Of a stretch of 64,000 bases of DNA, positions 2,001-56,149 are shown piece after piece. This DNA is from Dimargaris cristalligena. Taxonomy: Eukaryota. Each line of letters begins with the position of its first letter. Within the stretch, counting starts at the first letter, position 1. The position numbers and the translations under genes are program-made. The notes beneath the pieces were generated by a model. That model saw only the letters and a list, made by a program, of their open reading frames with translations, was not told the DNA's origin and searched no databases. Location: assembly GCA_003614675.1 (NCBI GenBank), contig ML002223.1:1-64000 (forward strand). Reading direction: 5' to 3'.

Positions 2001-4989
2001 GATGTGAAAATTTAGCCGGGTCCACATATGGCTGCAGTTTGAGTGGATGAAGGTAATTTACAGTGCCGGTGTATCAGACACACGGTACCCCCCGCCATTT
2101 AGTACCCCCCCCAGGCATTAGTTACCCATCAAACTGCAATTGCCCACCCATCCAATAAAAGGGTTAATGTAACAACTAATAGAGTATAAAGATTTGCCCT
2201 CATTGGCTGGTTTCAACACCAACAGCCCCCGCCTCCCCATAGTTCTGGGTGGTTTCTTTATATTATCACTATTTAATAACCCGTTTATACTTTACCTCAT
2301 TTGACTCCGATTGGCACACAACACTATAAATCTACTTTTTATTGGGGTTCACCTATAACGTAGATTTTTAATTATACTAGAATAACCCTAGTAATTCTAC
2401 AATTACCTAAGAGTTTTTTTTGGTAAATATGTCCCGGGTCCAAAAATGTCAAATTCGGTCGCATGCTCTGCATAATGAAATATCCATCAATAGGTGGGTA
2501 GTATCTGTCCGTAGCACGGGTTAGTGAGGGTTAGTGTGCGTATAAGAGCCCAGCAGGGCCATTCAGGGTGTGGGGGTTAGATACCTGTACTCTTATTGAT
2601 GTTGGCAACAATGGGCAATACACAATAAAAAAATCAGCAGGGAGTAGTTTTTGAAAGAAAATGTACTCTTTCTTGTCTAGAACAATTTATTTCAAAACCT
2701 TGTAGCTATTTATGAGGGGCCTATTTACATGTTTGAATCAGCTATTGGACTATTTTAATTATCTCATATTATTATTCTCATTATAAGTTGGTTATTTTAG
2801 GATCATTTGCTTTAAAATTACTTACTGAATTAGATAAAACAGTTTTTTTGTACTATGTATTAGGGGGGGGGGGTACTATATGCCTAGACATACCAAATGC
2901 CTGTTACACCGGCTTATACAATACCCGTGGATTGGATAGTCATCTGTGTCGTCACTCTGCATATTTAGTTATAGCACTACTTTATATCCGATTCAACGAT
3001 TAAATGTCCTGACATTGCTGATTCTTTCCGATAGTCCGATTATATATAAAAAAACGTTATTGTAAATAGAATCCGAACAAACCAGCGCTTGGACTATATT
3101 TGATATTCGCATATGATGGCGGTAACCAGCTTACATTAGAAAGCAGCGCCTTATATATTAAACATTTAACACCATGCCCATCCATAATGAATCAGACAGT
3201 GGCTGCGTACTTGACATATGGTAAGGTACAACCGATGGTGACTCGACTGGTTCAGTCCAGTCGCATTGTACGAGACACTTTGCTAAAGGTGATAATAACT
3301 AACTAGCCCCACAAAGTATGGTATACCTTGTCTTTTCCAAGTGAGCAATGGCAAAGTGACACCATTCATCCACCACCATTTTAAGTGACCATGGATACGT
3401 GACAAGACCTGGGGAATATGCTCATTTTGGGCGCATTGGAGTACACTGAATGTTATATATTTAGCGTACACGGCTAATTCACTATCCGCACTCGGATTAG
3501 AATGCGCACGAGCACTTAATCCATATGGCGACCCCTGCTACCCTGACAACCCCATTTATTACACCATCCATATCTCCAATCTGGGAGCACTCCTAGCCCC
3601 AACGATGGTCTGCAGGCTGGCCAGGTCCGTTGTGTTCAATTTGCCTTCGGATGCATGGCTGCAGAGTCGATGAGAGGAATGGCTGCAAGGCTGTACGCCA
3701 TCCACTGCTGGGCAAACAATCCAATACGTATGCGAGGTGCTTTTTAGATATGCTGTCTACTTGTGGGTCGAGATGTCGCACAACAGGAAAGCGAGATTAC
3801 CTGCAAGTTTCCGATAGTTCGGGTATGTGCTATGTGGTAAGCCTATTTAGGATTGATGAGCCTGACTTAGGTTTACCCAACTGGAACACGAGGTGGAAAC
3901 ATGGGCTGACAATTGCCACAAAATAGGCCTCTTGATATAAAATGGGGATTGTGTTTCGCAACCAACAATTATGTTGTTGGTGTTCAAACGCAGAAAGGCC
4001 AGTTCAAAAATCCGGGACATATAAATTAAGACCTATTAATAAAGGGGGTTTATCCCCTTACTTATTATTATTTGGATCGGAAGAGCTGGGCGTGGATTTA
4101 TTTTATTTATCAAATCGCTAAATATTATATCGGAGGTCAATCAAGGCTGGATTATATACCTGTCTATTTTCCCAGCAATTGGAAACGATGGGGTCAATAT
4201 CAGCCTGAGAAAAGTGGTGTTCAATGAGAGGCTGTTTGAAATAAGCTGATGCCATCCAAGCATAATCTAGAATATTTTAAACCCGCGGCAATATAGGGCA
4301 ATGCTTCAGGACAAGTCTGGCAATTGCAGGTACGCTTAGAGCTTCTGACATCATGAATGCGAAATGTTTAGTTGTTGAGCGGAGGTACTGGAATAACGCA
4401 ATCCGCAGCTACTACCTGGTGGTTCTTGGGGCGGCATGCGGAACAGGAGGATGCCAAAAAAAACCCGGACGAGGGTGACCGGCTGAGTTTTCCAAACTAT
4501 CTAAACCGCGAGTCACTGTGGGGCTGATGAGCACAAAGGCACTTTCGAGAGGATAGTGATAGAGCTGGTCTTGGTGGGGGTTACAACGACGTGCGGAAGG
4601 CCAGGGGGGCGGGCATGAGAGATTAGAGAGGACTTCGTTGATTTAGACCACCTTTTATAGCAGACCAGACACGGGGAGATACAAGATTTCTAGTGAGCTG
4701 ATGGTACCGCTGGACCAGCGGTCCCGTCAACGTTATGGTTAATGGGATAGCCATAGGGTTTGAGGGCAGCCCGGTTGTTAGTTGACCAAATGACTTATAA
4801 ATTACTCACCGGCCACTACTCCCTTGGTCGCCACCCCCGGATTATTCCTTCAGCCCTACTGACTAAGTCCAGTTTCCCCATAACAAACCTTTAATCGCAT
4901 CTAATTTCCATTCTTAACACTGGGGACATTTCCTGTAAGCCATTATTAGCAATCCCATCGAGTGAGCCGGTCCCCTCTTTCCCACTATT

Positions 4990-6529: not shown

Positions 6530-8723
6530 TCACCGGAGGGCCCGAAGTTGATGGATGAGTGCCACATTGGCCGAGGGTCGTGATGGAGGTTTAAATACCT
6601 TCCAGAAGCGGAGTGTTTCGTCAGCCGCCGCCGTCACAAGGTTCTCGCCGTCAGGGGAAAGGGCCGAATTAAGGACCCGGGTGCGATGACCGGTTAGAGT
6701 GGCAATCTTCTTGAAGTCGGGGTAGCTCCAAAGGGCAATGTGGTGCTGCGAGTAGCCGTGTGCGCTCACCAGTTCGGACGATGTGTGCGACCAAATCACA
6801 TTACAAACCTACACCGGCCACATCATTAATCATATAAAATAGCGCGGGGAGACTAATATTAACCCAAAAATGCTAGAGTTCAAGGGTCTATTGGGGATAC
6901 CACATTAACAGAATCTTAAGGCAGTCAAATATTTTCCGCACTCCCTGTTCTAAAGACAAAAGTCGGGAAAACTACTACGGTTCGGATGCCTTACCTGAGA
7001 GCCGGTTTCAATCACCTGGCCCGTTGTCCCCGTCTTAGCGTTGCGGATTCGGATCGTCTGATCAGCCGTACCACCGCCGCTAGCCAGGATATGCCGCTCA
7101 TGGGGGCTCCAAGCCAGGGCACGGATGGCTGCCTTGTGGTCATTCCAACACCACAAGGGCTGGCGCTGTTGTCGCTGATCCCACACCATCACGCAATTTT
7201 CGTTGCCCCCACTGGCGAAAAGGGGGAGATGCGGGTCGCCCCCTCCGGAACGTCCCCGGGCCGCGACCGCCAACCCACAGACCTCTTGTTCATGGGCCCG
7301 GTACTGCCGGACCGCACGTGGGCCCACCCGAAGGTCGAATTCCCGGATGATATGGTCGCGACAACCCGTCAAGTACCCGTGGGGCTGGTGGAATGTCACC
7401 ACACCTACCCGGTCCTGGTGCGCGGAACTTAGGTCCTCCTCCTGGGTCTTTTGACCGGTGGCGTAATTCCAAACGGCCAGTTTGCCCTGGGACTTTCCTA
7501 CCACGAGGGTATCGCCGTCACCGCTCCAGCCCACAGCGGTTACGGGTACGCCCGTTTCGACCAACCCGCCTAGTAAACTAATGTGCTCGGTGCGGGCGTT
7601 CCAAAGGTAAACTTCTAGTCCTAATGCCACGGCAATCACATCCCGGACCGACCAGTCCAACAAGTGGAGGTAGAAATCGTCTAGAATGTTTGGGGCATCC
7701 AGGATTTTGTAGGGATGTCGGTCAATAAGGCGATTCCGCTGGAGCCGGGGGTCAAAGGGTGGGCACAGCATGGCGTGACTGCGCTGGCTGATTGGACTGC
7801 CGCTGTAAATGGGGTGGTAGGGGGACTGGTGGGCCGTAAGTCGGGGCCTGGTCGGGGTTTGGGGGGTCGATCGAAAATTAAGGAGAGACGGGGCTCGGCT
7901 GGGACTTTCCACCTTTGACCAGGGAGAATGGGCATTGGCGGACGAAGTGGGGGAGTCGTCCGGACCCATGCTACCAACTAACTCATGTTGGAGCACGGAC
8001 TGGTATTTTAAATTGGCCATTTCTATTAGGGTGGTGCAGGTAATGGTGTACAAACAAGTTGATACGGAATTGGCCGATTGGTGAGGAGGTGACATACAAT
8101 CCGGCTATCATTAGACACGTTTCTTGAAGACCAGGTATACCTACTAGGGAATTGTACATGCAGAGTTGGTTAGGGCGGCCCCCACGCACACTGCCCTATT
8201 TTATCCAGCCATGATTACACTTACTGACATCTTCATCCATGGAATTACATTCAGTGCGTAGGCGCTTGAACGCAGGTGTTTCACAAGACAGTGCGAATTC
8301 CGCCTGCAGATTGCGACCGGTCCGGGACGGAATAAATCTAGCGGTAGGAAACGGTTCATTGTAAGTACCGAGGGGTGGAGTTAGCTTAGGAGGGGGTGTT
8401 GTCTACGATGTGTAGATTGGCGAATGTAGCAGGAAATCAGGGAGAAGGGGGGGGGGGTTCGATTGAGCGCTGCTGGAGGCTTACCTGTCCCCATACGTGT
8501 AATGAGCGGGGCGCTTGCGGGGAGTGACGGCAGGTGTGTTCAACAATGAGACCGGACTGGGTAGGAGCTCGAGTGACATGGCCGATGTGGAACCCATGTG
8601 GGCCGGGGACGGTGCAACAGGTAATAGGATGGGCTTAGGTCGAGGAAATTTGGAACGGGGGGAACTGGAAACGCCCTGGGCAGCCGGGCCCAGGGAGGGC
8701 TCAAACGGGGTTGTGTCGGCCAT
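6530..8723 (-). CDS. FZR1: APC/C activator WD40 protein, Cdh1/Fizzy-related type (4 predicted exons: 8723-8485, 8337-8225, ~8022-6995, 6808-6530)
   Basis: The C-box DRFIPSR is reconstituted across intron 1 (GAC AG|A TTT ATT CCG TCC CGG). Other motifs: PYKILDAPNILDDFYLHLLDWS, ASGGGTAD, GSQ|VCNVIWS, SPDGENLVTAAADETLRFWKVF, and a C-terminal LR tail. The exon 3 acceptor is less certain. Confidence 0.9.
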
Positions 8724-10442
8724 GGGGTTAATCGGCCGGGTCAATATCTAATCGTAAGATATATATATATATATATATGGGGAGGGGGATATCCTACTGT
8801 ACGACGGACCGTTTTCGTCAATCACCGCTAAAAATTGTATAAATACGGCAATAGAGGGCAGATAAACAAAGGAGCGGAAATGACCCGGGCGGAAGCGACG
8901 ACGCTGTCGGCAGCATTGATGAACCACGGCAAATACCCTCATTGAAGTTCGAAGTATCGCGGTTAGGAGAGAACAGCGGTGGAGCAATAGACGTGGCACC
9001 TTAGACCAGGAAGGTAATAATAGGCCGGTGGTTTCAAATGGGCGCTTTTAGTAGTTATATTGGATCAGTATTGCCAGCACGCTCCTGGGTAGCACCAGGA
9101 GTCTCTTCACACAGGCTCAGTGGCCCGAGTTGATAAATAGAGTTAAAGGGTACGTGGGCTTGGCCCGAAGCCAGGTGGTGGTGTGGGTTCGTATCTAAAA
9201 GGGTTGCTGGTAAAGGAGGATGCGATGCGACTTGCTGAGCCCCGTAGGAAAATCCAGAATAATAGGGCTGTCCCACTTACACTAGAGCGACCGCATTCCA
9301 AGCAGTCCTTAATGCAATTTATTAATAGGGGCAACGTGAGACAGGGATACTTGAGATAAGGGGTTCATTGGAATGGCGGGGAACCCTGATTATAATTGCA
9401 CCCCTCCTGCTCGTTCACTGACGGGCAAGCGGCATTGACTACGGGGTTTAGGGGCCGGGCATCATTAAATATAACCCTTGGGGCATTTTCTGACGGAGAT
9501 GCCGATTACAAACTAAGCGGCCCGGCACCACCTTGTGTAACCAATGATGTAAACTATAAAGCCCATACACTAAATATCCAATCCCAAATGCCGGGCGGTA
9601 AGTATGGCAGGGCAGCTTAACCACGTCGATCGTCAGTGGTGGAGGCCCTCAGTTGGCCAATGGCGAGTGGCCATCTAGGATGCTAGAGATGTGTGCGTGG
9701 GCCCCGCCGCCCAATGCTGCCTTTGTAAAACAGATAACGGACATTCGACCGTTTTTCACGCGACCCCCGCCAAACCCTGGCTGAAGTCCAAGACGGCCCT
9801 TTTTCGGGACTCGCTGTATTTCCCCTGGTGGAGGGCTATTTTTACGAGTCGAGGGGTCCCTTTGAAGTTCTGCAAAGGACGGGGAATAGGGCAGGACGGC
9901 TAAACTCCGCCTTTGGTCAGATGTTTGGCTTAGTTGCGGCTTAACAAAGGCGGTTAGTATTGCTGGGCCCAAGCTTCATTACATGGCCGGAAGATAGCAC
10001 CTTCCGTTTCCTTTGCCGTATTTGCCCCAAGGAAAATTGGCTAGATTATACTGTACGATACTTGCCCAAGGCCAACCATCTGAAAAGCGTGAGTAACTTG
10101 TGTTTCGTGAACCTTGTGCACCGACAGCAACTCGTTCATTGCAAGATCTCCCCTCTTCTTGTTTGGCCCACTCTATCTATGGACTGGTGAGCGGCAAGTC
10201 TTGAATGCTCTGACCAAGGTTAGAGATTTTTACTTGTAGTTAACTGACCTTCTTCATCCCACTTTCTTCCTTTCGCAACTACTCTGAACTCCTCCCCCCT
10301 TTTTTTCACCCGCTGCGCAATTCGACTTTGTTTCATTTTGCGACTTTCCCTCTGTCTATCGTTTTTGGTATTCCCCTTCTCTCTCTCTCGACTCCAGGCC
10401 CTACTTTGTGCGCGCGTGTTGTCCAGTCCCCGTTTACTTGCC

Positions 10443-13432
10443 ATGTCTTCTTCGTTACAGAAAGCCGTCGTTAAATCAGTACTATCGGGTGACACCGTGA
10501 TTCTTCGTGGCCGACCAAATAATGGCCCACCAGCAGAACGCCAACTGAATCTGAGTTATGCCGCCGCCCCCCGGCTGGGGAGCGTCAAGAAAGACACTTC
10601 TGATGAGCCCTTTGCCTTTGAGTCCCGTAACTTTCTCCGCACCCTCGTCGTAGGGAAAGAAGTGCTATTCCGCGTCAACCATACCGCCCAGCAAAGCGGT
10701 CTAGAGTTCGGCACGTTGTACGTCGCCGGCACGCCCGTCGATGTAGCCACCCAGTGTATTCAGGAAGGTTGGTGTCGGGTGCGGGACGAGGCCCGTAAGC
10801 CCGGCCAGGGCGAGGACGCCCGGGAACTGCTTCGCCTAGAGGCCCAGGCCCAGGCCCAGCACCGTGGTATTTGGGCTGACCCCGGTCGCTCGCCACTGGC
10901 TACTTTGCCCCGTCCTACTTCCTTTCACGGTGACCCACATGCGTTTTTGGCCAAGTACCGGGGCAAGTCGCTAGACGCTATCATCGAACAAGTGCGCGAA
11001 GGATCGACATTCCGTCTGCTCGTTTATTTGCCGAATAAGGACCAGCCCCGCGAGTTCCAGTCCGTTGTTTTGTTTCTTTCTGGTATTAAGTGTCCGATTG
11101 TCCGCAAGGGTATACCGGGTATGGACGATCTAGTGGAGCCTTTTGGTGAAGAGGCGAAGTTCTTTGTCGAATGCCGGTTGCTCCAACGCGACGTTCGGGT
11201 TATTTTGGAAGGACTGGCCGGTACGAACCAGAACTTCGTCGGTTCCGTCATTCATCCCGCCGGTAACATTGCCGAGCTCCTGGTCAGCAGCGGCATGGCC
11301 AAGTGCGTCGATTGGAGTCTATCCATGGTCACCGGGGGCCCTGCTAAACTGCAGGCCGCCGAACGGTACGCCCAGAAGAACTGTCTCCGACTCTGGAAGA
11401 ACTATGTGCCCAAAACTGAAACAGATCGCCCCTCGAAACATTTCCGCGCCACCGTAGTCAAGATCGCCAGTGCTGACGGTCTGCACATTCGCAGGGTGGA
11501 CGACGACGAGGAATTGAAAATTCAGCTCGCTAGTCTCCGACCCCCCAAACTTAAAGACGCCAACGAGGCTGGGTATCATTTGGAGGCTAAGGAATATTTG
11601 CGTAAAAAGTTAATTGGTAAACAGGTAGGTTTACACACACACACACTTACTTTCCCTCTCTAGATATTTATTTATATCCATATATAAATATATGCATGCA
11701 ATCAATCCGACTATCGATCCATCGTCAGGCATTTGCCGTATCTCATTCTGCCGTACTCATCCGTGACTATGCATGTATCCGCCACCCCCTAATCCGTACT
11801 GCCCGTCCCTCGCATCAGGTTGATGTGATTATTGATTTTGTTCGTCCCGCTACCGATGAGTTTGAAGCCCGGCAGTGCGCCACTGTGACCTTAAACCACG
11901 TTGACGTGGGCGAGCAGCTGGTAGCACTAGGTCTGGCCGGAGTGGTTCGCCACCGCAAGGACGACAACGACCGCTCCTCCCATTATGATCAACTTTTGGC
12001 CGTAGAAAATAACGCTATCGCTGAACGCAAGGGCATTCACAGTGGCAAGAAATCCACCGCCCCCCGGGTTACCGACGCCTCCGAGACCCACAGTCGGGCC
12101 CGCCAGTTCCTCCCTTCACTCCAGCGGAGCGGCAGAGTCCATGCCGTCATTGAGCACGTTGCCAACGGGGGCCGCTTCAAAGCCTACTTGCCCAAAGAGC
12201 GGGCCAAGGTCACGCTCGTCCTGTCCGGGGTACGGGTACCCCGGGTGGGTCGCACCATGTCCGACCCTTCTGAGCCTTTTGGTGACGAAGCGATGGACCT
12301 GGCGTTGGAAAAGTGTATGCAGCGTGATGTCGAAGTGGAGTTTGAGGCCATCGATAAGACGGGTGGTTTCATTGGGACATTATGGCTTAACCACAATGAG
12401 AACTTCTCGTTGACTCTCCTCGAGGCCGGTCTAGCCTCGATTCACGAATACAGCGCAAATCAAAGCCCCTACTCTACCCAGCTGTTCACAGCGGAGCGGA
12501 ACGCCCAGGCGGCCCGCCGCGGTCAATGGGAAGACTATGAGGGAGAGGAAGAAGAGCACGTCGAGCCCGCCAAACAGGTACGCGAGACCTCGACCAACGG
12601 ACCGGAGCTGGTGGAGGAACCCGCGTCGTTTGCGCCCGAGTACGTGGACGTGGTCGTGTCGGAAATCATCGACGGCAATAAATTCTACCTCCAGTTCGTG
12701 AAGGATGCCATCCCAGGACTCGAAAACCTCATGGCTGAGGCTTCCGTCTACCACCAAACCCCCGCGGCCATCATGAGTGCCACTGCGTCGGGCTTCCAGC
12801 CCAAGGTGGGCGACATCTGCTGCGCCCAGTTTACGATAGACAACCAGTGGTACCGCGCCCGGATCGACCAGATCCAGAATAACGTGGCCCAGGTGTTTTA
12901 CATTGACTACGGTAACTCCGAGGCCCTGCCCTTCAACCGGTTGCGACCCCTCCCCGCGGCATTCGCCAAGCTCTCCGCCCAGGCCCATGTGGCTTCGCTG
13001 GCCTGCCTCAAGGCCATTCCGAAGGACCAGGAATACGGCATGGACGCCTACGAGCGCCTACGGAGTATGATCGAGAACCGCCAGTTGGTGGCCATCATTG
13101 AAGGTCGTACGAAATTACCCTCGGCCGGCAAGAGCCAGGCGGCCCCATCCAGCAACGGAACCGCGGCCGTTTTCCCCACCCCCGCCCCCCCGGTGGTCCT
13201 GCAGGTCACTCTGTACGACCCCGTCGTGTCGGATAGTCTCGAGGCCAGCATCAACGCTGATCTGGTGCGTGCCGGTCTGGCTCTGGTTAACAAGCAAGAC
13301 CCAATAGGCAAACGGAACCCTAATCAGTTGGCGCATTTATTACGGTGCTTGGAAGAGGCTAAGCGGTGCCATTACGGTATGTTCGAGTACGGTGATACGA
13401 TGGCCGACGACGAAGACAACAATATCGAGTAA
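10443..13432 (+). CDS. SND1: Staphylococcal nuclease domain-containing protein 1 (Tudor-SN); exons 10443-11624 and 11819-13432
   Basis: Repeated SNase domains (VKSVLSGDTVIL, EPFAFESR, EPFGEEAKFFVE.RLLQRDV) and a Tudor domain (QWYRARI...VFYIDYGNSE). A phase-0 GT-AG intron joins KKLIGKQ|VDVIIDF. Confidence 0.96.
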
Positions 13433-14677
13433 ATAGGACCCCCCGTCCATATCTGTTACCTTCTCCCGACCCGACCCTACCCTATCCTATCCTATCCTAT
13501 TCTTACATATCCACGACGCTGTGCTTCGCCCTGTTTTCCATTTCTCTCTCAGTCTCGATCCTTCCTCTATATATTTTTTTGCGTTCAGTCCAAACAAAAT
13601 CGGGCAGTGCAGCTTTCCAACCCTAGCCTATTAAGTTATCGTCCCAACCTACCCTGTCCCCCTTTTTTTTCTCTTCAGGAAGGGTTTATATTTACCGATC
13701 CTAGTTTATTATTCTGTGATACGCCATCACCCGTTCGCGTGTAAAATTGCTCCCTTCCGAGGGTGCAGAATGGTTTATATATAATTATATAAATATACAT
13801 AGGTACCCCCTTCCCCTCTACCTTTTTTATTTAGGCTATAGATACTTGGTGGTTCGCTCTGGCTGATTTAGGGGATATATCCTGCCCGATCGGACTCCAG
13901 CGACTCTACCAGATTTCACATGCAATACGTGCCGGGTGTAGAATTTACTGTGTCAACTTTGCGGGAGGCTTTTGGTGGATTCGGGTCATCGCCGCCCTGC
14001 GGCTGGAAAGTATTTTGCCGCATTTCTGGGCTAGAGCATATACACCGAGACGGAAGCCGAAGTCGAACTCGAGGGGTATGGCATGCTTCCCAATGATTAG
14101 ATTGTTCTAATTTTATCGGAGATAGATGAGGAAGATAAAGAAGGGCTACTTCAGCCTCCCTAGGAACTACCTCTGGTGGCACTGGACAGGCAGACCTTCT
14201 CTGCCCGTGAGTGGCCTGCAAGGGACTAGGAAGTTCTGGGGGAGCGGAACCGACCTATACGATTTTATTCGGCAAGTAAAAATTATCCGCCTAGGAAAGG
14301 CGGGGAAAAGGACACCCAACTCCTCCACTTATCGCAAGGATCGCGCATTTATATAACCTACCACCACCCCAACCATCCTTGGCGCCTGTATATTATCTCT
14401 TCCGCATTTTTTCTCCCCACCCTCTCGTATTGGTTAGCATAGCGAGGAGTGTCTCCCCTTAGTACCTCTCTCATTCCCTTTTTCCTTCTCCCTCCCGGTC
14501 TTGCTCCCATGAGCTTGGTTTCGCACTAAACTTAACCCCTGTGTTCTTCTTCGCATTCCCCCCTCCGCACTCAAAGACTATAGCCCTACATTGCCCTTCG
14601 CTCATTTTGTTAGGGGACTCTAAACACGCGTGCTGTACCCGCCACCCCCCATTCCTCCGACTGCCAGTGGCCCCCCC

Positions 14678-17101
14678 ATGTCGCCCGACCCCCCCCTCGT
14701 CCGTCGAAGCCGTTCCGGGCCCCCGTCGAGTCTGTATCGTAGGCGCCGGTCCCGTTGGCTCTCTCGCCGCCATTTACTTTGCCCAGCGCGGGTGGTGGGT
14801 GGACCTGTACGAGGCCCGCCCCGATATGCGGCGGCCCGCTACTACTACTACTGCCACTGCTAACCCGGCCCAGTCCCAGCGGTCGATTAACTTGGCCCTC
14901 TCCGTGCGCGGGCTGTCGGCGCTTCACCAGACTGGACTGGGCCTCGATGCGGAAATTATGGACCTGGCTATTCCAATGAGAGGACGCATGATCCACGATC
15001 TGGCCGGGCAGCAAACTAGCCAGGTGTACAGTGTCTTTGGCTATGTAAGTAAAATATCTATTAGTTATTTATCAACCCCCTATAGGCTGTGTCAAGTATT
15101 ACACATCCACATCCACATCCACACACATATATATATATATACGACTTGGAATGATTAGCATGGGGTCATATGAGAATTTACCTGCTGATACCCCATCAAA
15201 TTATTTAGGTTCGTTGGAGAATTCAAGCATTATCCTCCACCTCAGAAATATACGTGTGTTTATGGAAGCCATCCGGCAGGTCACTGCATATTTACTGGGG
15301 CACTGTTAAATTATGCAGAAAATACCACTGCCCATGCGAGTGTGTGGGGCTTGGAAGCATTACTCCCTTAAGGGGACTCTGACTACGCTCCCTAATTCTA
15401 TAATACTTCATCAATAATGCATTAAACCCTTCGGCTATTTCTTGTATTTCGACTTTCTCCGAAATTATATCACCTTACTATCCCATGCATCGTATCCCCC
15501 ACTAGTGTATTAACTCGGTCGACCGAGCCGGTCTCAACATAAAACTTCTGGATAGTGTCGAGGCATTCGGGAATGTGCGTATTCACTTTAATCACGCATT
15601 ACAAACGTGCGACCTGGACCGCCGTGAGGCCACATTCATGAACAAGTAAGTGCTTAGTTTATAGATGCCTAAAAGTTGAATACCGGGTAAATTTGGGAAA
15701 TGTCCACGCTCCATCTAATTCCTGTTGCCATACATAATACGGTCTAGAGAGCTCCTCGGTTTTGTAGTTTTACTTTACAGGATGTTACCCCCTCCCGATG
15801 CTGGATATAAACCAATAACTAGAGGGTTCTTGCTAAAACGCACCAAATGGTTCCCGTCAGGGCATTCACTAATCTATATTTCCTGCATCCTTCCGGAAAC
15901 ACGCGAATGGCACCCCGTGTAGGTCTACTGGGGAACATTTAACGGTACAGGCTGATTTGATCGTGGGTGCTGACGGCAGCTACTCCACTTGTCGCCGCCA
16001 GCTGATGCGCCGAACAAGGTAAACCCGCTGGTTTCAATATTCTGATCAACTTCCATATGTATACTACCCGGCCTTTATTTATCCGCTCTCATTATTTCTC
16101 GAACACACACACACACACCTGTGCCATTATTAATATTCTAGTAATAGTATGCAATTATTCCCCAAACCATAACATATTCCACCAGAATGGATTATACACA
16201 GGAGTACATCACACACGGTTACCGCGAACTCACCATCCCCCCACTCGAAAATGAAGATGGCTCCACCGACTTTCGCATGAACCGCAACCACCTCCACATC
16301 TGGCCTCGGCATACATTTATGATGATTGCGCTGCCCAATCTGGACCAATCCTTCACCTGCACCTTATTTATGCCGTACGAGAAATTCGAGGAAATTACCA
16401 CCGAGGCTGAACTTGTGGCCTTTTTTGAGACCTTCTTCCCGGACGCCCTCCCGCTCATGGGCCGGGACCGGTTGTGCGTGGATTTTTTTACCAATCCCCG
16501 GGGGTCCCTGATGTCTGTGAAGTGCCACCCCTACCACTACGAGGACAAAATGGTCATTATCGGCGATGCGGCCCACAGCATGGTGCCTTTTTACGGCCAG
16601 GGCATGAACTGTGGATTTGAGGATGTGGAGGTGCTCTTTAGCATTCTGGACCAACACGATGTGGTGGGTTACCCCCTGCCCGCCACCCCCGACCCCGGGA
16701 CTGCCGCAACGTCTACGACCAATCCCCCAGCCAAAACCACCGGCGACGGCGACTGTGACCGCGATGGTGATTTAGCCCAGGCCCTCGCCGAATATACCGA
16801 GGTGCGGCACCGGGATGCGGTAGCCATTTGTGATTTGGCAATGGTCAACTACATTGAAATGCGCTCGTTGGTCACTAGCCGGCGCTACCTGCTCCGCAAG
16901 ACTATTGAAGGCTATCTCCACCGATGGTTTCCGCGCTGGGTGGTTCCGCTGTATACCATGGTGTCGTTCAGTCGGACTCCGTACCACCGGGCCATTCTGC
17001 AGCACGACCGGCAGACCCGCTGGCTGGGTTACGGATGGCTCGCTGTCACTGTCATGGCGGTCACCGGCTTGGCCTGTGTAATGAGGCGCTGCAAAATGTA
17101 G
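14678..17101 (+). CDS. KMO: Kynurenine 3-monooxygenase (exons ~14678-15044, 15506-15645, 15923-16018, 16186-17101); start uncertain, see finding
   Basis: FAD motif IVGAGPVG, RSINLALSVRG, IPMRGRMIH, DLIVGADG, LHIWPR, GDAAHSMVPFYGQGMNCGFED, and a C-terminal hydrophobic anchor. Intron phases are all compatible. Confidence 0.93.
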
Positions 17102-18866
17102 CCACTAAAATGGACCTAGGAGGTTGCCATGGTTGACCTAATTTGTCCATCACTACCCCCTTCCCTATTCATTACATTATTTGTGTTTGATGACAATGAG
17201 AGGGAGAACCGGTTTATAGTTTATTGTGGTGTTTGTAAGGCTGCCTTTTGGGGGCACTTTCATTATTATGACTCATTGTTAACATCAGCCCGGGCCAAGG
17301 GGGTGTTTTTATTAAGGCTGATATCTCTGGGCTTGGTTAGAGTCAAACCGGCCGATTAAAGGCTGCTATAGTATAAACCAATTGTTGGGCCCGGTGCCCT
17401 TTCGCCAGGGAGAGAATATAAATAATGCAATGGGAAACTACCCCATAAAAGTAATGAGCACACCAAACCCCTCACCGATATATATGATATAAAATAAGTC
17501 TGATGTGAGTATGGGAGCCGAGTCTCTCTCTTGTACACCCCCCCCCCCAACTATAACAATTAATGGTTCTGTATAGACTTATGGCAGGTTCAGTCAGTCT
17601 ATGAAAAAGCAGGCCCCGAGGCAGGGAAATTGGGTTGCTTTAAAGCAGCGGGAGCGTCAGACGTAAATTAATTTCATTATCCCAACTTCCGTTAGTTGAA
17701 GTACAGTAGGTTTGATTCGCAGTTGAAAAGCCGGCTTTTAAGGGCGGAACAGCCGCCCCCTTTCCGCAACAACAAATTCCCTTTACACCCCTCCCTCCCC
17801 AGCCAATTATGATATATGTTTATATATTATGAAGTGCCTGAGTAGCAGCTGGGCAGGACAATCGTGTATTTGAATTTACGAACGCAGTATCTCCCCCTGC
17901 CATGATTTTATGGACTCTCTCCTATGCGAATTGGGTTGGTATATTATCGGAAACGATCCCAATTTTTACACCGGGAAGTCATTTTCGAAAACATTTCATG
18001 AAACACCTCGACCGACGTAGTTGTGAGCTCAATGACGTTTCCAGTCCACCTACCAAGGGTAAAATCGTCCAATCGACCTTTTGTTTTCGCCTGGCCCCTA
18101 ACGATTTTGTTGGTGGTGGGACACGTCAACTAACTGCCCATTATGATTGATCGTTCCTCAAAATGGGGAGACCACTCCCCCACTAATACGCCGCTATCTA
18201 ACCACCCAATCGGACACTTATGTCAGCTATCTAGTGGAGGGGTGGCATACCTTACCCGTCGTCTCTCTCTTTCTCTCTCCTTCTCTATGATCTGTATGCG
18301 AATCGCCGCGGGCCTTACTGTTGGTTTAATGGAAACACTGTATCCGTCCGCGCACCTGTACCTCCCATCCTGCCACCATTTCACTTTCATTATACGAACA
18401 GGGTGCCGTTGTTCAACTATTGTGGCAGTACAGTCTCGAGTGAATCCTTGCATAGCGCAAATTAGCTCCAAGGCCCATCAATTTCGTCCATTCATTAGCC
18501 CCTCCTCCCACTCCTTCTCCCTTGGTGTCACAACGATGCCAGCAGCTCCCCCTTTGCAATGTTTATGCACCCAATTGTTTTGATTTGTTGCCCAGATCTA
18601 AAATTGGCTGTCTTTGTGGAGCGTGTCTGTGTGTGGGGGGAGTAGGGAGTCAGGAAAGATACCGGTGGGTGGGGATGGCCGTTCACGCACAGACCTTTAT
18701 ATAAACAGGTAGGATTGGCCTAGCATTTTTTTAAAAAGAAATCTAAATTGATCTGGACAAGCGCCTCTCTCTCCCTCTCTCACCCCCTCCCGCCAAATCG
18801 CACCAGTTTTATAACGATTGTTTTTGCAGGCCCCCGCTTCAATTTCTTTTACCAGCCAGATCAAAA

Positions 18867-20493
18867 ATGAGACTCTCGCTGTATTCCGTTTCCGCCCTAG
18901 GTCTGATGCTGGCCCACCAGTTCGTACTCGCGGCACCCCAGCCCACCTCCACCTCCACCACCACCTCTACCGACATCGCCTCTCCAACTACTACCCTAGT
19001 CCCGTCCGACTGTCTCATTAAAAAATTGCCCGTTGAAATCCTTTTGGAACTGCTCCAAAATCTTTCAGCTCCTGACTCGTTTCAATACGGTATGACCCAT
19101 AGACATGCGTGGTCCTGTGTTCAAAATCAGCCCGAACTTAAGCCGCTTTTTGCTGTAAGTGAACCACCAGACTATTCATAGTCTGTCCGACCCCAAAGAA
19201 ACCCCACCCCACTTTCTCTCTCGCTCCTTACCAAAGATCTGCTTTATCCACAAACCGAGGGTGTTAGGGGGAAGGTCCACCAGGGGCTGCCCACGCCCCC
19301 CTTACGAATGAGACACTCGGGAAGAGCGGCGGTTAAACCTAGTATGTTTTATTAACCACACACACACACACCCCTCTTCACTTCTCTTCCACCACATCCA
19401 TTATTAGTGCCATACCAATCTGGCCAATATGGAGCAAAATATCCACCAACCTCTGTTACCTGATCAACGACCCCGGGCGATTCGCACGGCCCTTCTGCAC
19501 GAGTACAACAGCGGGTTATTGTTCGAAGCATACCAGCAATTAGAATACCTGGGCATCGACTGGCAAGGGAATCGCCTGGTTGGTGATCCGGCGGATATAG
19601 ACCCGGCGGATTTCCAATTGGGCACGACGCTCCTCGAAGCCCAATCCGGTGGCCTACGGGAGGCCCTCAGCGAGTTACGTCACGACTGGGCCTACCTGCG
19701 CTATGACCAACTTCCGGCCTACCAGCAGTACCAGGCCTTTCCCCTCGTGTTTCTAGCCCTGCGGGGCCGGGTGGTGGTGGTGGCCCGAATTTTGCACCAG
19801 TATCTGCTGGGTCTGGGGGAGGTGGGGCCGGGCGTAGAAGTAGTCGTAGTCGCTACCAACGGAGACGTGATGTCCCCCTCCCTGCCCCCCACCGCCCTTT
19901 TCCGGTACATGGATAATGCCACCATTGACCAACATAATGTGGCCTACTATTCCGTGGGTGTCCAGGCGGCCATGGAAATCGTGGTGGCCCTGGCCGACGC
20001 CGGCCATATGGAAAACCTCCGACTCTTTAGGGACACCCTTCTACAAGGCGGGGGACCGGCCGGCTACGAATGGTCCAACTATATTGAGAATTACTTTTAT
20101 ATGGTGATTTTGGAATTCTTCCCCATGTCTTCTTCTTCCTCCGCTTCTTCGTCGCCCTTGCTTGACGAAGCCCTGGCCCACTTCCAGAGCCAGAACTATA
20201 ATGGGCTCCCCGTGCTGTGTGCCCAGGAACACCTCCGCTTCCCTAACGCTTACGCCCGGTTGCAGTCGGTCCTGGAGGACCCGGTCGAGATGGTGGTGGG
20301 TCAATGCCAGCAAACCTACGACGCCTACCGAACGGTCTACGTGGATCGCAGTCAGCCGGGGGGTGTTTCTGCGCAGTTGGCCTTCCGGGTTCGGCGGTCG
20401 GTTGTGGACGCTCAGATTCAAGTAAATGACGACGTTTTCCTACCCAACGAGCTAACTCAGACGCTTCTTGCCAAATCTTTTATCTCGCGCTAA
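18867..20493 (+). CDS. Secreted protein with F-box-like motif (exons 18867-19154 and 19408-20493)
   Basis: Signal-peptide-like N-terminus (MRLSLYSVSALGLMLAHQFVLA|AP), a Thr-rich linker, then LPVEILLELLQNLSAPD...RHAW. A phase-0 GTAAGT...TAG intron joins the two ORFs in frame. Confidence 0.75.
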
Positions 20494-21183: not shown

Positions 21184-21996
21184 TTAGTAGCCCTGGGGAC
21201 CACCGAAACCACCGGGGCCGCCGTAACCGCCCTGGTGACCACCGTAGCCACCCTGGGGACCGCCATAACCACCACCACCGCCGCCCTGGTAGCTGGCGGC
21301 TTCGCCGTAGCCTCCGGAGTTGTAGTTGTTGTTGCCACCATAACCGCCCTGGTTCTGGTAGCCGCCGCCGTAGCCGGGCTCGTTGGGGGCGTTACCACCA
21401 CCTCCGCTGCCGACCTCCCGGTCGTAGAGCTGCATGGCGTTGGCGGCGGCCTCGCGGGTGGCGGCCTCACGCTTATTGGGGTCGGTGACATTGAATCGGC
21501 CGAGGAGTCGGACGGCCTGGCTCATGGCAATGGCAGCCAAGGCCTTCTTCATGAAGGAGTGTTCCATGGGCTGGCCCGATTGTTCCTGGTGCTTCTGGAA
21601 CGCCTTCATGGCCTGCCAGCCGGCCGCGCCGGAAATAGCCTGCCAGGCAAAAGGGGTGTTGCTGTCACTGAACAGACCCCGGTCGGTGGACTCATTGTTG
21701 AGCTGGTTGAACTGGCTTTCGCACTGGCTGGGGTCAATACCGCCGCCGCCCATACCGCGGCTGCCTTCGTGCTGCTGAGACTCGGCCTGCTCTAGCAACC
21801 GCTGGTGTTCGGGGTTGTTGTTGATAAAGGCCATGGCGTTTTCGATGGACAGTTCCTGGTCGTTGTTTTGGTAACCGCCACCACCGCTGTAGCCTCCTTG
21901 GTTACCATAGCCTTGGTTCCCGTAGCCCTGGTTGCCGTAGCCTTGGTTCCCGTAGCCCTCATTACCGTAGCCCTGGTTGTAGCCGCCGTAGCTCAT
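21184..21996 (-). CDS. CipC-like (DUF3759-type) protein with Gly/Tyr/Asn/Gln-rich N- and C-terminal regions
   Basis: The core AISGAAGWQAMKAFQKHQEQSGQPMEHSFMKKALAAIAMSQAVRL resembles the fungal CipC/DUF3759 motif as recalled. An upstream TA tract at about 22138 could serve as a TATA element. Confidence 0.8.
   Translation of the reverse strand: MSYGGYNQGYGNEGYGNQGYGNQGYGNQGYGNQGGYSGGGGYQNNDQELSIENAMAFINNNPEHQRLLEQAESQQHEGSRGMGGGGIDPSQCESQFNQLNNESTDRGLFSDSNTPFAWQAISGAAGWQAMKAFQKHQEQSGQPMEHSFMKKALAAIAMSQAVRLLGRFNVTDPNKREAATREAAANAMQLYDREVGSGGGGNAPNEPGYGGGYQNQGGYGGNNNYNSGGYGEAASYQGGGGGGYGGPQGGYGGHQGGYGGPGGFGGPQGY
21895..21975 (-). repeat. Coding 15-bp tandem repeat (GYGNQ units)
   Basis: GGCTACGG(G/C/T)AACCA(A/G)-type units repeated about 4-5 times. 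Confidence 0.8.
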
Positions 21997-26298: not shown

Positions 26299-27387
26299 TT
26301 ACTGCTGGGAAGTCCAGGCAGTGCCCGCGGCATCGTTAATCCAAGTGTACGTACAGCCGGTTTGGGTGGCATCGGCGTTTTTACAGGAGCCGACCATGTA
26401 CAGAGTCTTGCCGTCAGTACCACCGAGGGCAATGCTGGTGAGCTGCGTTGTGGGGGCCTTGATAGTCTGGAGGAGCTTACCGGCCACCGAGAACTTAAGG
26501 ACCAGGTTAAGGCTGCTGCGGGCCACGAAGAAGTTACCGCCGACGTCCGTGATAATAGCGTAGGACACCTCGCTGCCCGTTTTGTTAAGGGACTCGAAGT
26601 CGACCAGGAGCTTCTTGACCGGTGCGCCGTCGGCCGCAATTTGCACCAGACCGGTGGACTTATTCAGGGTATACTGCCATACCTTGGCTTCGTAAGGGAC
26701 CGCGTTGTTCAGTCGGGAGTCCACCACGTACAGGTAGTCACCCGCGGCACTAACGGCCACTCCGTTGGGTCGGCTCAATTGGTCCAGACGCTGGGCGGCC
26801 CCGGTGTTGCTGCAGAACCACACGTCACCGCTGTCGGTTCCACTGGTGGGGTTATTGTTCTGACCCACGAGGTAGGCGTGCCCAGCGCTGGTCACATCCA
26901 AGCCCATGGGGCGCAGCATACTCGCGTCCTGGCACCAGGCCTTGAGGGAGTCCGTCGTCGGCAGACCGGTTCCCATATCAATGGACAATTGCATCACCCG
27001 CGGGGTCGTCAAGTCGGTCAGGTACAGTTGTTTGGTCACAACGTTATTGCTCTTGACCGTGCGGAACCGGATGTCGCCGACCGTCAGGTTGCTGTCGGTG
27101 GAGGTGTAGTAAATGGAGGGTTCGCTAATACCCGTCAATTTGGTGACGGAGTTCGAGGTGGCAACGAGGCCGTTATTACCAACGAAGAGATCGCCTTGCT
27201 GGTCGATACCGGCCGCGTCGAGGTACTGGCCCAATTTGGTCTGACCCGCTGCGAATAGGACCGTGGCGTCAACACTGGGGACATCCGTGGTGGGGGTTGA
27301 CGGATGGCACTTGGATATGGGTTGGGCGTGTACCAACACGGCGGCCATGGATAAGGCAAGGATGGAGAGGGCGGAGAAACGGGCCAT
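26299..27387 (-). CDS. Secreted SMP-30/gluconolactonase/LRE-like six-bladed beta-propeller (362 aa)
   Basis: Signal peptide MARFSALSILALSMAAVLVHA. Blade motifs RPNGVAVSAAGDYLYVVDS, DVGGNFFVA and TSIALGGTDGKTLYMV. Intronless. Confidence 0.8.
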   Translation of the reverse strand: MARFSALSILALSMAAVLVHAQPISKCHPSTPTTDVPSVDATVLFAAGQTKLGQYLDAAGIDQQGDLFVGNNGLVATSNSVTKLTGISEPSIYYTSTDSNLTVGDIRFRTVKSNNVVTKQLYLTDLTTPRVMQLSIDMGTGLPTTDSLKAWCQDASMLRPMGLDVTSAGHAYLVGQNNNPTSGTDSGDVWFCSNTGAAQRLDQLSRPNGVAVSAAGDYLYVVDSRLNNAVPYEAKVWQYTLNKSTGLVQIAADGAPVKKLLVDFESLNKTGSEVSYAIITDVGGNFFVARSSLNLVLKFSVAGKLLQTIKAPTTQLTSIALGGTDGKTLYMVGSCKNADATQTGCTYTWINDAAGTAWTSQQ

Positions 27388-28282
27388 GGCTGCGATTTTA
27401 CAAGGGGGTGATGCGGGAGGGGAGGGGGAGGTATAGTGTAATACGAGGTGGGTTTTTGGGAAGGAGTGGTGGTGTGAATAATACAATGTTTGGGAAAGCG
27501 GTCGTTAGTTGTTTTGGTTGAAGGAAGCGAAAGAGAATAGTATGAAGTGCTTAAATACTGCGAGTATTTATAGTGACTTAAAAATCATTAAAAGGCAAGC
27601 AGTAAAGCGAATGCTGGGTGAGAGGGGTAAGGTATATGGTTTAAACTATTGACGACCACGGCTCTTTATATACGTGGGAGCGCCAAGATGGAAATCAATG
27701 GGGAAACCTTTACACCCCCCTCCTGCTCTCCCTTCCCCCCTTTTCAAACTCGTCAGTTGGTCTATTATTTCCCCCTTGTCACCCATCTGCAATCGCCCAA
27801 TTGGATTAAAGAAACAGCCATATCCACCCGCAAGTTCATTTTACGGATTAGGTAAATCAAGCATATTTTGAGGCCGACAATCTCTTCCGAGATTGCTTCC
27901 TTTGATCAACCGAGTTGGAGCCAGTTAATTCGCGCAACCCGGTACTCAGAGCGACGCACAATAAAATGGTCGAATGGGAAAATAGAGGGACACGCCCAAG
28001 CCCCTCGATACAGATAATCTATTTTTGAGTACTCAGGTGGCGAATTGAATAGTCGCCATCGCCGTACTTTGGTTTTCCTAGACTTCTCTACCTCCCCCTT
28101 GCTCAAGGAAATTTATTGGTGCATTTCCTGGAGAATAAAATAGCCATGATGCTCCAGCGGATTTGTGGAGCCAGAGGTTAGGGATGACCTCAGATCGCCT
28201 TAATCGGGCCGATCATTTATCCCGTGGCTCCAATTAATTCATCTATTTCACCGAAATCTAAAGAGACCGAATGTCAATCCTC

Positions 28283-30628: not shown

Positions 30629-31018
30629 CTATAAACGTTCTTTGATCTTCTCCAAAGGTTTATCGAATTCCCCCGCGGACGAATACGAGTCTACCTGCGG
30701 TGGTATCTGCGGCTGAGACTTGACCATGGCACCCTCCACGGAACGATAGACGGTCCGCTTTGGACCAACCACAGGAGTAACCACGAGCTGCGGGATATGG
30801 TGAACGGCTGGAATGTGACTATTATCGGGGGCCGTAGGTTGTTGTTGGTCTGCGGAGCGGCCGGCCAAAAGTGAAGGACTGGGAAGAACAGGTGGCATGA
30901 CAGGGGTGTTATATCCGAGGGCTGTGGGCTCCGGTTTATCGATGTATAGGTCGGGGGCATTCCAACTTGCCGAGACTGCCACTAAGCCAAGACAAAGGAC
31001 AATGGGAGTGAAGCGCAT
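30629..31018 (-). CDS. Small secreted Pro-rich orphan protein (129 aa)
   Basis: Signal peptide MRFTPIVLCLGLVAVSA and a TATATAA about 140 bp upstream on the minus strand. Confidence 0.65.
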   Translation of the reverse strand: MRFTPIVLCLGLVAVSASWNAPDLYIDKPEPTALGYNTPVMPPVLPSPSLLAGRSADQQQPTAPDNSHIPAVHHIPQLVVTPVVGPKRTVYRSVEGAMVKSQPQIPPQVDSYSSAGEFDKPLEKIKERL

Positions 31019-32238
31019 CGTGGGTGGATAGTATAGTTAAATTACAGAAATAATAACGAATACAGGTAAAGTACTGGGAGAAATGGGTGTAGATATCAAT
31101 ATCAACGAGGGAACTTTGTTGGAAGCTATTTAATGTTAGTATGACAGCCACCCCCCCCTTATATATATCTCTCTCTTTAAGGCAAGAGACTTGGCCGCAA
31201 AAGGGGAATATCGGGAATAGGAGACATGGCAAGAAAATTGGGGTGGTTTACTCTTTAGTATTAGACAAAAATAGCCAGCCATGTTATTTTAGTGGTCCGA
31301 ACGGGCGTACGGAACACTAGCGAGTAGCACTACGACCCCATATTTTCAGTATATATTCTTCAATGGAACATCATCCCATTTAAAGAAGTATTCTTTTAAT
31401 TCGGAATAGCCCAGGGGAGTGAGGGTGGGTGTGGGGGGGGGGGTCGTACGGCCCACCTAAACAGAGACCGTTTCACTTGACCTACACGGCCGCTACGAAC
31501 CGCTATTTGTACTCTATCGGTTAAATATGAATTCCACATTTGAACCTCCGTGGACAAGAGGGGGGGAAGGGGGTAAAGGTAGCGAGCGGGTGATGCAGCG
31601 GTTACACCAAAAAGGGGGCGTTGGCGATTAAAAGGCGGCCATTTCAACAGAATATTCCAAAATGAAAAGGGGGAGAGGCGTATAGCTAGATCAATTTGTA
31701 GTGACTGGGTCGCCAGAGTAGCCGATACCTTGGAAGTTCAAGTTGGTGGCTCCCCGGTCCCCTCTTTATCACACTTACACCCATCCTTTCGCCTTCAGAA
31801 GAAAGGCAGGTTGGCGGGGTTTTATATACTCGAGACGAGCTGGCCACCAAATGGGAGTAATAGATGCATGGTTTATTGGTAAAGCTTTGGCAAGTGAATA
31901 CTGAAATATCAGGTACCAACGAAGGGTGAACTTAGGCAGTGGAAAACTTAATACTTCCGGAGTCAGTCACCCCAGGCAAGTCAATCGGGCGTGCGGTAAA
32001 AATATAGCGGCACTGAACAGGAATGCCAAAACGCATGTTGCCGTCCGCTTATTCTCCATTGAAAAAAAGAGATAGTAGTGCTGGTGGGTCCTGTGGTTTT
32101 ACATATTGGGAAGCTGAGCTTAAAAGAGGGAGATCTGTTGGCAAGTTGTCAAGTTATTTTAACCACAGGTCACTATATAATTTGATTTATAACCAAAAAG
32201 TATTTTCCCCTCCCTTCCTTCAAGGGCCCTTCTGTTCC

Positions 32239-55288: not shown

Positions 55289-56149
55289 TCTCCAATGGTA
55301 TTAAAACTGGGAGATATGTAAGTGATGGTTTGTTAAAATAGCCTCGGTCTAATAGGCAGTGCACCACTCTATATTTCATGACCGGATTGATTAGACCTCC
55401 CTTTTCTTTTTTCTGTCCTGTTTTTCGCTCAACTTCTCCACCCCCCTATGTTGGTATATATATGTTTTTAAATTATTAATAACCACTAATGTCCATGACC
55501 AGTGCTCTATGTCTTTATAATGGCGTTTAGTGCTCTAATGGTGTTTGCTACCGTATATTATAATTTGTGGTTTCTGTCTCCCCCTTCTCTCCCTCGGTTT
55601 TGATTGCGCCTCGTGTAATAAATATTCTCATAATGACATCTCACCCAACCCTTCGCTGGTAAATAACCACCCAGCCAGGGCCCGTTTAAGTAGTAGGTGG
55701 CTAGCAACTGCATTCGAAATGGTTTGGTATAAAAGGCATTTAGGTATACCATGTATTAGTGATACCGCGGCTAATATGTTATTGAATAACCATCGCTATT
55801 AATGCCCTGGCCAATCTGGTACCCACCAAAGTAAGAGTTTCCGCTGCCCTTTGTTGTATTTAGCCAGTTAAGCCAGGAAAGTCCTGGGTATAAACTAGAC
55901 ATGCCCATTCCCAAGGTGAGCCGAGTCGCTGTAGGGTTCGTGGATATAGTAGCATGCACTCAACTATTCTTGTTTGATAGCCTCTTATATTAAAAGCCAC
56001 TATAGGCAGCCTCCCGTTTGTTTACTCTCCTTTTCCCCGCTTCATTCTCCTCTACCTACTCTACCCGTTTCATTTGCTGCCATTTTATTTGCATTACCCT
56101 TCCTCTCCCCCTTCTTCTCCTTACATACTCTCATTCGGAATATTCCACC

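Follow-up and report, generated by a model that had tools for sequence, protein, structure and literature searches.

A two-exon gene of Dimargaris cristalligena with a signal-peptide-like start, an F-box-like segment and an orphan C-terminal domain

The gene model and its orphan C-terminal domain

The stretch of DNA analyzed here (the window) comprises 64,000 nucleotides (nt) of contig ML002223.1 of Dimargaris cristalligena, and our subject is a gene on its forward strand that starts with an ATG at 18867 and stops with a TAA at 20491-20493. An initial annotation of this DNA had described the product as a signal peptide followed by a Thr-rich spacer, an F-box-like motif and about 360 aa of unrecognized sequence, encoded by two spliced open reading frames (ORFs), and had read it as a fungal effector that would be delivered into a host cell to redirect a Skp1-cullin-F-box (SCF) ubiquitin ligase there. 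The coordinates and the peptide quoted in that annotation, LIKKLPVEILLELLQNLSAPDSFQYGMTHRHAW, were found in place, the latter at aa 50 to 82. The window DNA is fungal, as supposed, and the public match assigns it to D. cristalligena (Dimargaritales, Kickxellomycota), which is a haustorial mycoparasite.

The two ORFs, 18867-19181 (104 aa) and 19429-20493 (354 aa), connect in frame via an intron, giving a gene with the structure 18867-19154 plus 19408-20493 around 253 nt of intervening sequence. Its predicted 457-aa product is identical to H4R33_000295, a public hypothetical protein of the same length, so that the splicing proposed at the outset coincides with the public model. The 361-aa translation of 19408-20490 had a single match, H4R33_000295, at 100% identity and full coverage (8,000 candidates scored), and tblastn of H4R33_000295 on the window returned exon 1 and exon 2 at 100% identity each. 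The UniRef name of this entry begins with 'F-box domain-containing pro', the basis of the naming not being visible.

The splice signals are of ordinary form (Table 1). The donor GTAAGT is canonical and sits at a codon boundary nine codons ahead of the ORF 1 stop; branch-like sequences occur at 19352 (TTAAC) and 19377 (TTCAC), and the next AG downstream is the annotated acceptor at 19406-19407. The final 50 nt of the intron are 70% pyrimidine. The intron also contains a (CA)n microsatellite run, at 19358-19372. Since an intron of similar size (290 nt, GTAAGT...TAG, 56502-56791) was inferred in MAT1 of the same window, the length seen here is normal.

Coding potential was assessed with a codon-usage log-likelihood score (LLR per codon) trained on eight Pfam-supported ORFs of the window. 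Exon 1 scored +0.145 per codon in frame versus -0.36 and -0.35 in the other two frames, and exon 2 scored +0.27 in frame, while the 253-nt intron was negative in all three frames. Within exon 1 the linker scored highest (+0.46), ahead of the signal-like segment (+0.21), and the F-box-like segment was about neutral (-0.06). No in-frame ATG was found between the upstream stop (18747) and 18867. As judged from the sequence, D. cristalligena has here a single, real gene of two exons that is restricted to its lineage, the junction being a predicted gene model equal to the public annotation.

The C-terminal region deserves the description as unrecognized that it had been given. No Pfam family matched its 361 aa, whether these were searched whole or in six sub-segments, and a HMMER search over 1,835,955,588 representative proteins retrieved the protein itself and a single 233-aa relative, BJ085DRAFT_37722, a hypothetical protein of the same species (E 1.2e-25, 38% identity, query residues 24-242). 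In a search with BJ085DRAFT_37722 as the query, only this protein itself was recovered (1 of 677). By tblastn no paralogue was found within the window, the other matches having E values of 0.53 to 9.6. The public model of the relative covers only the part equivalent to aa about 119 to 355 and lacks both the N-terminal part and the last 100 residues; it begins 17 residues ahead of the conserved domain, near the point equivalent to ATG 19429. That gene model is probably incomplete, and its locus may hide unannotated exons, possibly one for a signal and an F-box. A match of GED to BJ085DRAFT_37722 (E 0.15) was taken as noise.

No known class of substrate-binding domain (leucine-rich repeat [LRR], WD40, Kelch or Ank) was recognized in the C-terminal domain by Pfam or by a repeat test, in which the best internal score was 32 against 31.3 +/- 4.0 in shuffles. 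An ankyrin identity, suggested by an ESM-Atlas lead at chance level (0.80 to 0.82), was rejected, there being no Pfam Ank match on the domain or its sub-segments and no internal repeat. Structure matches from the same Atlas all had a TM score below 0.35 and were disregarded. AlphaFold2 (AF2) modeling of the whole protein from a two-sequence alignment gave a helical prediction at unusable confidence (predicted local distance difference test [pLDDT] 38.7). With no Pfam family and one same-species paralogue, the C-terminal 361 aa are, by these searches, novel, as the initial annotation had put it.

The F-box-like segment and the signal-like N-terminus

Close to its N-terminus the protein carries an LPxE(I/L)L-type first helix, LPVEILLELLQNL, at aa 54 to 66. 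When exon 1 was searched against Pfam, F-box-like (PF12937) scored 13.2 bits (E 0.076) and F-box (PF00646) 12.7 bits (E 0.13). With aa 46-96 as the query, the values rose to 14.9 bits for F-box-like (E 0.023, profile positions 2-23 of 47) and 14.5 bits for F-box (E 0.035, profile positions 2-29 of 43), all of them below the gathering cut-offs of 24.3 and 20.5 bits, respectively. The envelopes of these hidden Markov model (HMM) matches end before W82. Apart from the two F-box models, no Pfam family matched aa 46-96 at E ≤ 10. The control consisted of 65 other stop-to-stop ORFs from the window, searched at E ≤ 0.2, and 6 of them gave a match (seven family matches, E 0.013 to 0.2), in every case to unrelated families and never to an F-box model. 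Matches of this strength are ordinary noise in general, yet it is noise without a preference for F-box models.

The reported fit to the F-box consensus held in part. Used as a literal regular expression, LP.EIL..I...L...D......R.W had no match, the target included, whereas a relaxed core chosen post hoc, LP.[ED][ILV][ILV]..[ILV]...L, occurs a single time in the six frames of the window, and this is at the target; shuffles contained it 0.04 times on average, with 8 of 200 holding at least one copy. W82 and the hydrophobic positions fall roughly at what we take to be their places in the F-box consensus. An AF2 model of aa 44-96, built from the single sequence (pLDDT 62.3), has helices at aa 56-66 and 78-86 with a short turn between them. 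The top feature match in the ESM-Atlas was a cluster named 'F-box domain-containing protein' (0.88), which serves as a lead only, and a database search with the F-box region (aa 46-100) recovered the protein itself and nothing else (1 of 5 candidates). A match of SoxE_N to aa 20-35 (E 0.054) was taken as noise. From its sequence features we describe the stretch of aa ~50 to 96 as F-box-like and consider it probable, if unproven, that this is a genuine F-box, an estimate raised by the UniRef name, of which the basis is not visible.

Upstream of this segment, the claim of a signal-peptide-like N-terminus stood as far as its layout goes. By inspection, an n-region (MR) is followed by an h-region, LSLYSVSALGLMLA, and a c-region, HQFVLA, which places V20 at -3 and A22 at -1 before A23; the best 19-residue Kyte-Doolittle mean is 1.54. 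The feature cannot be claimed to lie beyond chance, because a crude n/h/c rule fires on 9 of the window's 126 ATG-initiated ORFs of 60 aa or more, among them several that are surely non-coding. Moreover, the best 10-mer of the h-region reaches 1.9, versus 2.8 and 3.2 in two convincing signal peptides nearby. Positive charge flanks the hydrophobic stretch only on the N-side, there being none in the 29 residues after it. As for the Thr-rich spacer, it is clearly present, with 69% Ser, Thr and Pro over aa 23-48. To the eye, aa 1-48 have the look of a fungal signal peptide plus an O-glycosylated stalk.

The two convincing cases among those nine ORFs, with the cores of 2.8 and 3.2, both lie on the reverse strand. 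The SMP-30/gluconolactonase/LRE-like ORF 26302-27504 (ATG 27387, Pfam E 4.1e-16) has a much stronger signal-like start, MARFSALSILALSMAAVLVHA, with a Pro/Ser/Thr-rich stretch next to it; judged by its sequence, it probably encodes an enzyme that is truly secreted, and it can serve within this genome as a comparator for signal peptides. ORF 30632-31036 (ATG 31018) encodes 129 aa, opens with a very hydrophobic signal-like stretch, MRFTPIVLCLGLVAVSAS, matched no Pfam family and may code for a small secreted protein.

Possible roles: own-cell adaptor, secreted protein or effector

The reading that we favor, at a probability of roughly 0.35, is that the gene encodes a lineage-restricted, divergent F-box-type SCF adaptor acting in the fungus's own cell. 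In an SCF ubiquitin ligase, the N-terminal helical module (aa about 50 to 96) would dock on Skp1 and the orphan helical domain of ~360 aa would select the substrate, and the site of action would be the cytosol or nucleus of the fungus itself; the first 22 residues would then be either unused or a look-alike such as every signal-peptide screen yields. Support comes from the architecture, which is usual for F-box proteins in that an N-terminal motif is followed by a larger domain, and from the matches, which are to F-box families only, with 0 of 65 controls behaving likewise and the core motif found once versus 0.04 expected. The same reading is supported by the neighboring genes, which are of housekeeping type and include no paralogue in the window, and by a hydrophobic core that is weaker than those of the two clear signal peptides in the window. 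The UniRef name and, as a weak lead, the ESM-Atlas cluster also favor it, as do the N65 sequon and the cytosolic-type domains of predicted secretomes that are taken up below.

A number of results weigh against it. The full-length 457-aa protein matched no Pfam family at E up to 10, and the F-box scores remain below both cut-offs, with only the first helix region of the profiles aligned. When phmmer was run against the PDB, the full-length protein found no F-box chain, its four distinct sequences all being histone H2A (E about 0.8 to 1), and the segment found no F-box among seven distinct sequences (designed toroids and MccF, E 0.07 to 0.9); as relatives, all of these were treated as chance matches. 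MccF and the designed toroids carry the same P-x-E-[IV]-L-L-E helix, so an LPxE-type motif is not unique to F-boxes. Foldseek against the PDB with the low-confidence model of aa 44-96 gave no match at E ≤ 0.001 and seven at E ≤ 10, none of them an F-box; those matches (Rho, MANF/CDNF, a histone chain) were at chance level, and with a model of such low confidence their failure to include an F-box does not speak against the fold. The HMM and structural check that the initial annotation had called for was hence half a failure, with scores under both cut-offs and no F-box among the PDB-sequence or Foldseek matches. In addition, the N-terminus, with its Met-Arg, a hydrophobic core free of charges and V-x-A, resembles the real signal peptides of fungi, the Ser/Thr/Pro-rich stretch after the core is typical of secreted and wall proteins, and positive charge on the N-side alone favors translocation of all downstream residues. 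Nor is a mis-called start obvious, because the start codon looks right: in-frame codon usage is gene-like, and this is the first ATG past the TATA-like box.

Secretion at the haustorium, entry into the cytosol of the host fungus and binding to host Skp1, with the C-terminal domain sending host proteins to the proteasome, appears unlikely to us as the explanation of this gene, and the fully specified fungus-to-fungus scheme, with haustorial export into the host hypha, a divergent F-box joining the host Skp1-cullin and the C-terminal domain marking host proteins, slightly more so. As an idea this is legitimate, and having a haustorial mycoparasite as the source strengthens it. Dimargaritales parasitize other fungi by means of an appressorium and a biotrophic haustorium, as described in part of PMC9866270, so there is a host cell into which an effector could be delivered. 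One annotated protein combines signal-peptide-like and F-box-like features, and it is an orphan with a single same-species paralogue, like many effector candidates. According to the relevant rows of Table S2 in PMC9391592, strain RSA 468 has a large and enzyme-poor predicted secretome, with 815 of 7,456 proteins (10.9% versus an average of 5.7%) divided into 436 small secreted proteins, 313 'other' and 66 enzymes. Precedents of a kind are found in the SSGP-71 family of the Hessian fly (a portion of PMC4617103) and in a Rhizophagus clarus candidate (a portion of PMC4746824). These points are set against a sub-threshold F-box without structural support, a C-terminal domain without recognized substrate-binding repeats and a housekeeping neighborhood. 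No expansion of a family joining signal peptide and F-box was seen in the representative-protein database searches, which gave one paralogue whose model is without the N-terminal part. On the secretory route, the N65 sequon and the likely O-glycosylated linker would be modified, and a glycan added at N65, a sequon inside the F-box-like helix region, would sit on the putative Skp1-binding module. The combination also occurs without parasitism: two PF12937 orthogroups are indicators of the predicted secretomes of Mortierellomycotina (PMC9391592, Table S6), which are saprotrophs in the first quarter of Table S2 of that paper, so that being secreted and F-box-like is by itself no sign of host manipulation. 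Likewise, zygomycete predicted secretomes hold many typically cytosolic domains, among them F-box-like, RhoGAP, Hsp70, AAA and kinases (PMC9391592, Table S6), and a predicted signal on such a domain, being common, is no proof of export. Finally, evidence for F-box roles in eukaryotic pathogenicity was stated to be lacking in the portion of a 2021 comparative study (PMC8146833) that treats the matter.

The protein could instead be an ordinary secreted or cell-wall glycoprotein, in which the 'F-box' is a helix-capping P-x-E motif ahead of an amphipathic, Leu-rich helix and unconnected with SCF ligases, and this we hold to be rather unlikely. A signal-like N-terminus and an S/T/P linker are the classical entry to fungal secreted and wall proteins, the HMM match is confined to the first F-box helix at 6 to 9 bits under the cut-offs, noise of similar E value arose in 6 of 65 control ORFs, and the best PDB sequence matches were non-F-box P-x-E-[IV]-L-L-E helices with no F-box fold match beside them. 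On the other hand, both Pfam matches are to F-box models and to nothing else, which none of the controls reproduced; the UniRef name (of a basis not visible) and the rough placement of W82 and the hydrophobic positions with respect to the F-box consensus point the same way; and the C-terminal domain is helical, acidic and Cys-poor (5 of 457 residues), atypical of extracellular fungal proteins. It is quite improbable that the ORFs are unspliced, or not always spliced, with ORF 1 encoding a small secreted protein and ORF 2 an F-box-less one from its own ATG 19429 and an internal promoter. This ATG does have A at -3, G at +4 and a CT-rich tract before it, as at the first ATG, and BJ085DRAFT_37722 is a public model without F-box or signal, although it also lacks the C-terminal 100 aa and so is probably incomplete. 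A term search for 'transcriptom' in the genome paper (PMC6784888) gave 0 occurrences, so no RNA basis of the public models is visible there, and the acceptor AG offers little independent evidence, since it belongs to the in-frame stop at which ORF 2 begins. Against a split gene speak the canonical donor, the branch-like sites, after which the annotated acceptor is the first AG, a gap that looks non-coding in all frames, the similar intron of MAT1 and the public annotation, which joins the ORFs; being just 247 nt apart, they leave little room for a terminator and a promoter. Very improbable, in our view, is an uncleaved anchor by which the hydrophobic N-terminus would tether a cytosol-facing F-box protein to the endoplasmic reticulum or another membrane. 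There is one hydrophobic stretch of ~20 residues at the extreme N-terminus and no other comparably placed, and such a topology would reconcile the F-box with the hydrophobic start, but the hydrophobicity is modest for a span (the 19-residue mean given above) and a good V-x-A cleavage site follows. By the positive-inside rule, the positively charged flank of a membrane span stays on the cytosolic side, and with charge on the N-side only, the F-box would face the lumen or the outside rather than the cytosol.

The choice among these depends on which of the two N-terminal features is real. If the F-box is real and the protein intracellular, it would be a lineage-specific SCF substrate receptor; if signal peptide and F-box are both real, a foreign cytosol is the only sensible site for the F-box; if only the signal peptide is real, the product would be a secreted glycoprotein without known function. 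By a rough weighing of how rare truly exported F-box proteins are, of the false-positive rate of signal-like N-termini and of the weak F-box score, the own-cell adaptor, the secreted non-F-box protein and the host-delivered effector differ from one another by a factor of about two at most; we take the own-cell adaptor to be somewhat likelier than the host-delivered effector. The observation made in the initial annotation is thus partly confirmed, and its effector interpretation is partly supported.

As listed in Table 1, the recognizable neighbors are housekeeping genes, and no cluster of secreted or duplicated genes accompanies them. Further neighbors in the window are genes for a cyclophilin-TPR protein, a bHLH protein, Med13 and an LRR protein, and no Skp1 was found among the window ORFs of at least 110 aa. 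Near the DUF3759 gene, several long overlapping ORFs on both strands are artefacts of repeat composition. Positions 1-4000 are richer in AT (GC 0.40 to 0.42, versus mostly 0.46 to 0.58 elsewhere) and contain no ORF of at least 110 aa.

Table 1. Features of the gene and of its surroundings in the window
Feature	Position	Strand	Remarks
TATA-like box TATATAAA	18698..18705	+	Read from the sequence, ~160 nt 5' of the first ATG; putative promoter role
CT-rich tract	about 18766-18800	+	Between TATA-like box and start codon
Exon 1	18867..19154	+	aa 1-96; tblastn 100%
Signal-peptide-like segment, aa 1-22 (MRLSLYSVSALGLMLAHQFVLA)	18867..18932	+	n/h/c layout, hydropathy
Ser/Thr/Pro-rich linker, aa 23-48	18933..19010	+	69% S+T+P, no K/R, two acidic residues
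F-box-like segment, aa 50-96	19014..19154	+	LP at aa 54-55, W82, sequon NLS at N65
Intron	19155..19407	+	253 nt, phase 0; GTAAGT (19155)...TAG (19407); donor GTAAGTGA
Exon 2	19408..20493	+	aa 97-457 and the stop codon; acidic orphan domain, predicted to be mostly helical
Stretch conserved with BJ085DRAFT_37722	19474..20184	+	aa about 119-355
CDC20/Fizzy	about 6950-8100	-	
Tudor-SN (SNase repeats plus Tudor)	10248-13429	+	Split over overlapping ORFs 10248-11660 and 11621-13429
FAD-dependent oxidoreductase pieces	14463-17098	+	
DUF3759 protein	21184-21996	-	Pfam E 7e-17; long Gly/Tyr/Asn/Gln-rich prion-like tails
SMP-30-like protein	26302-27504	-	
MAT1	56006-57447	+	Split over two ORFs

Comparison with F-box proteins and effectors of other organisms

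In a full-text literature search, no secreted F-box effector of a fungus was found described, and the H4R33_000295 gene did not come up; the yield consisted only of cases from bacteria, the Hessian fly family and candidates proposed by computation. The phrase 'secreted F-box' did not occur in the 30 papers listed out of 137 matched, and the term 'F-box' is absent from the main texts of PMC9866270, PMC9391592 and PMC6784888. The prediction of secreted F-box-like proteins is itself already on record for other early-diverging fungi, saprotrophs included, and the gene described here is a weakly supported candidate. How Dimargaris and other biotrophic mycoparasites gain control over the fungi they live on is, to our knowledge, essentially unknown.

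With canonical F-box proteins, the Dimargaris protein shares an N-terminal LPxE(I/L)L-type helix, further predicted helices and a Trp after it, and then a larger C-terminal domain. It differs from them in being sub-threshold and without a fold or PDB-sequence match, in having a signal-peptide-like start, which canonical F-box proteins lack, and in a C-terminal domain that falls into no known substrate-binding class.

Closer in kind are the predicted secreted fungal proteins with an F-box-like domain, which are likewise purely computational candidates. NLS_30765 of Rhizophagus clarus, a protein of 542 aa with a PF12937 match at E 2.8e-07, was proposed as a predicted-secreted F-box-like effector candidate in a section of PMC4746824. 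This protein and the zygomycete F-box-like orthogroups pass the Pfam model, and the orthogroups are conserved, whereas the Dimargaris protein is sub-threshold and an orphan. The lifestyles differ as well, for Mortierellomycotina are saprotrophs in the rows of PMC9391592 referred to above and D. cristalligena is a haustorial mycoparasite.

SSGP-71 of the Hessian fly resembles the Dimargaris protein in stemming from a eukaryotic parasite and in having an N-terminal F-box followed by a target-binding domain, which is a likeness of architecture. In a portion of PMC4617103, the SSGP-71 proteins, which combine an F-box with LRRs, are listed as effectors inside host cells that interact with host Skp proteins. 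SSGP-71 is a large family that has undergone expansion; its members have LRRs, and their Skp binding is experimental, in contrast to a single Dimargaris gene with one paralogue and no LRR.

The bacterial effectors GALA/RipG (Ralstonia), AnkB (Legionella) and VirF (Agrobacterium) share the proposed logic, namely, an F-box that recruits a foreign SCF (for RipG7, see the part of PMC4617103 that covers it). Differences are that they are injected by type III or type IV systems rather than exported with a Sec signal peptide, that their target domains are of LRR or ankyrin type, and that their Skp1 binding is experimental. The Dimargaris protein showed no homology to them here, and no LRR or ankyrin repeat domain was recognized in exon 2 of the kind expected of SSGP-71/GALA/AnkB-type mimics. 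Parasite and host are in this case both fungi with near-identical SCF machinery, so that an exported F-box protein would, if true, be a very direct way of rewiring the host. It would then stand as the first case of a fungal effector hijacking a host SCF, and no effector mechanism of a zygomycete mycoparasite would have been known before it; a strategy of injected bacterial effectors and one insect family would thereby be extended to fungi.

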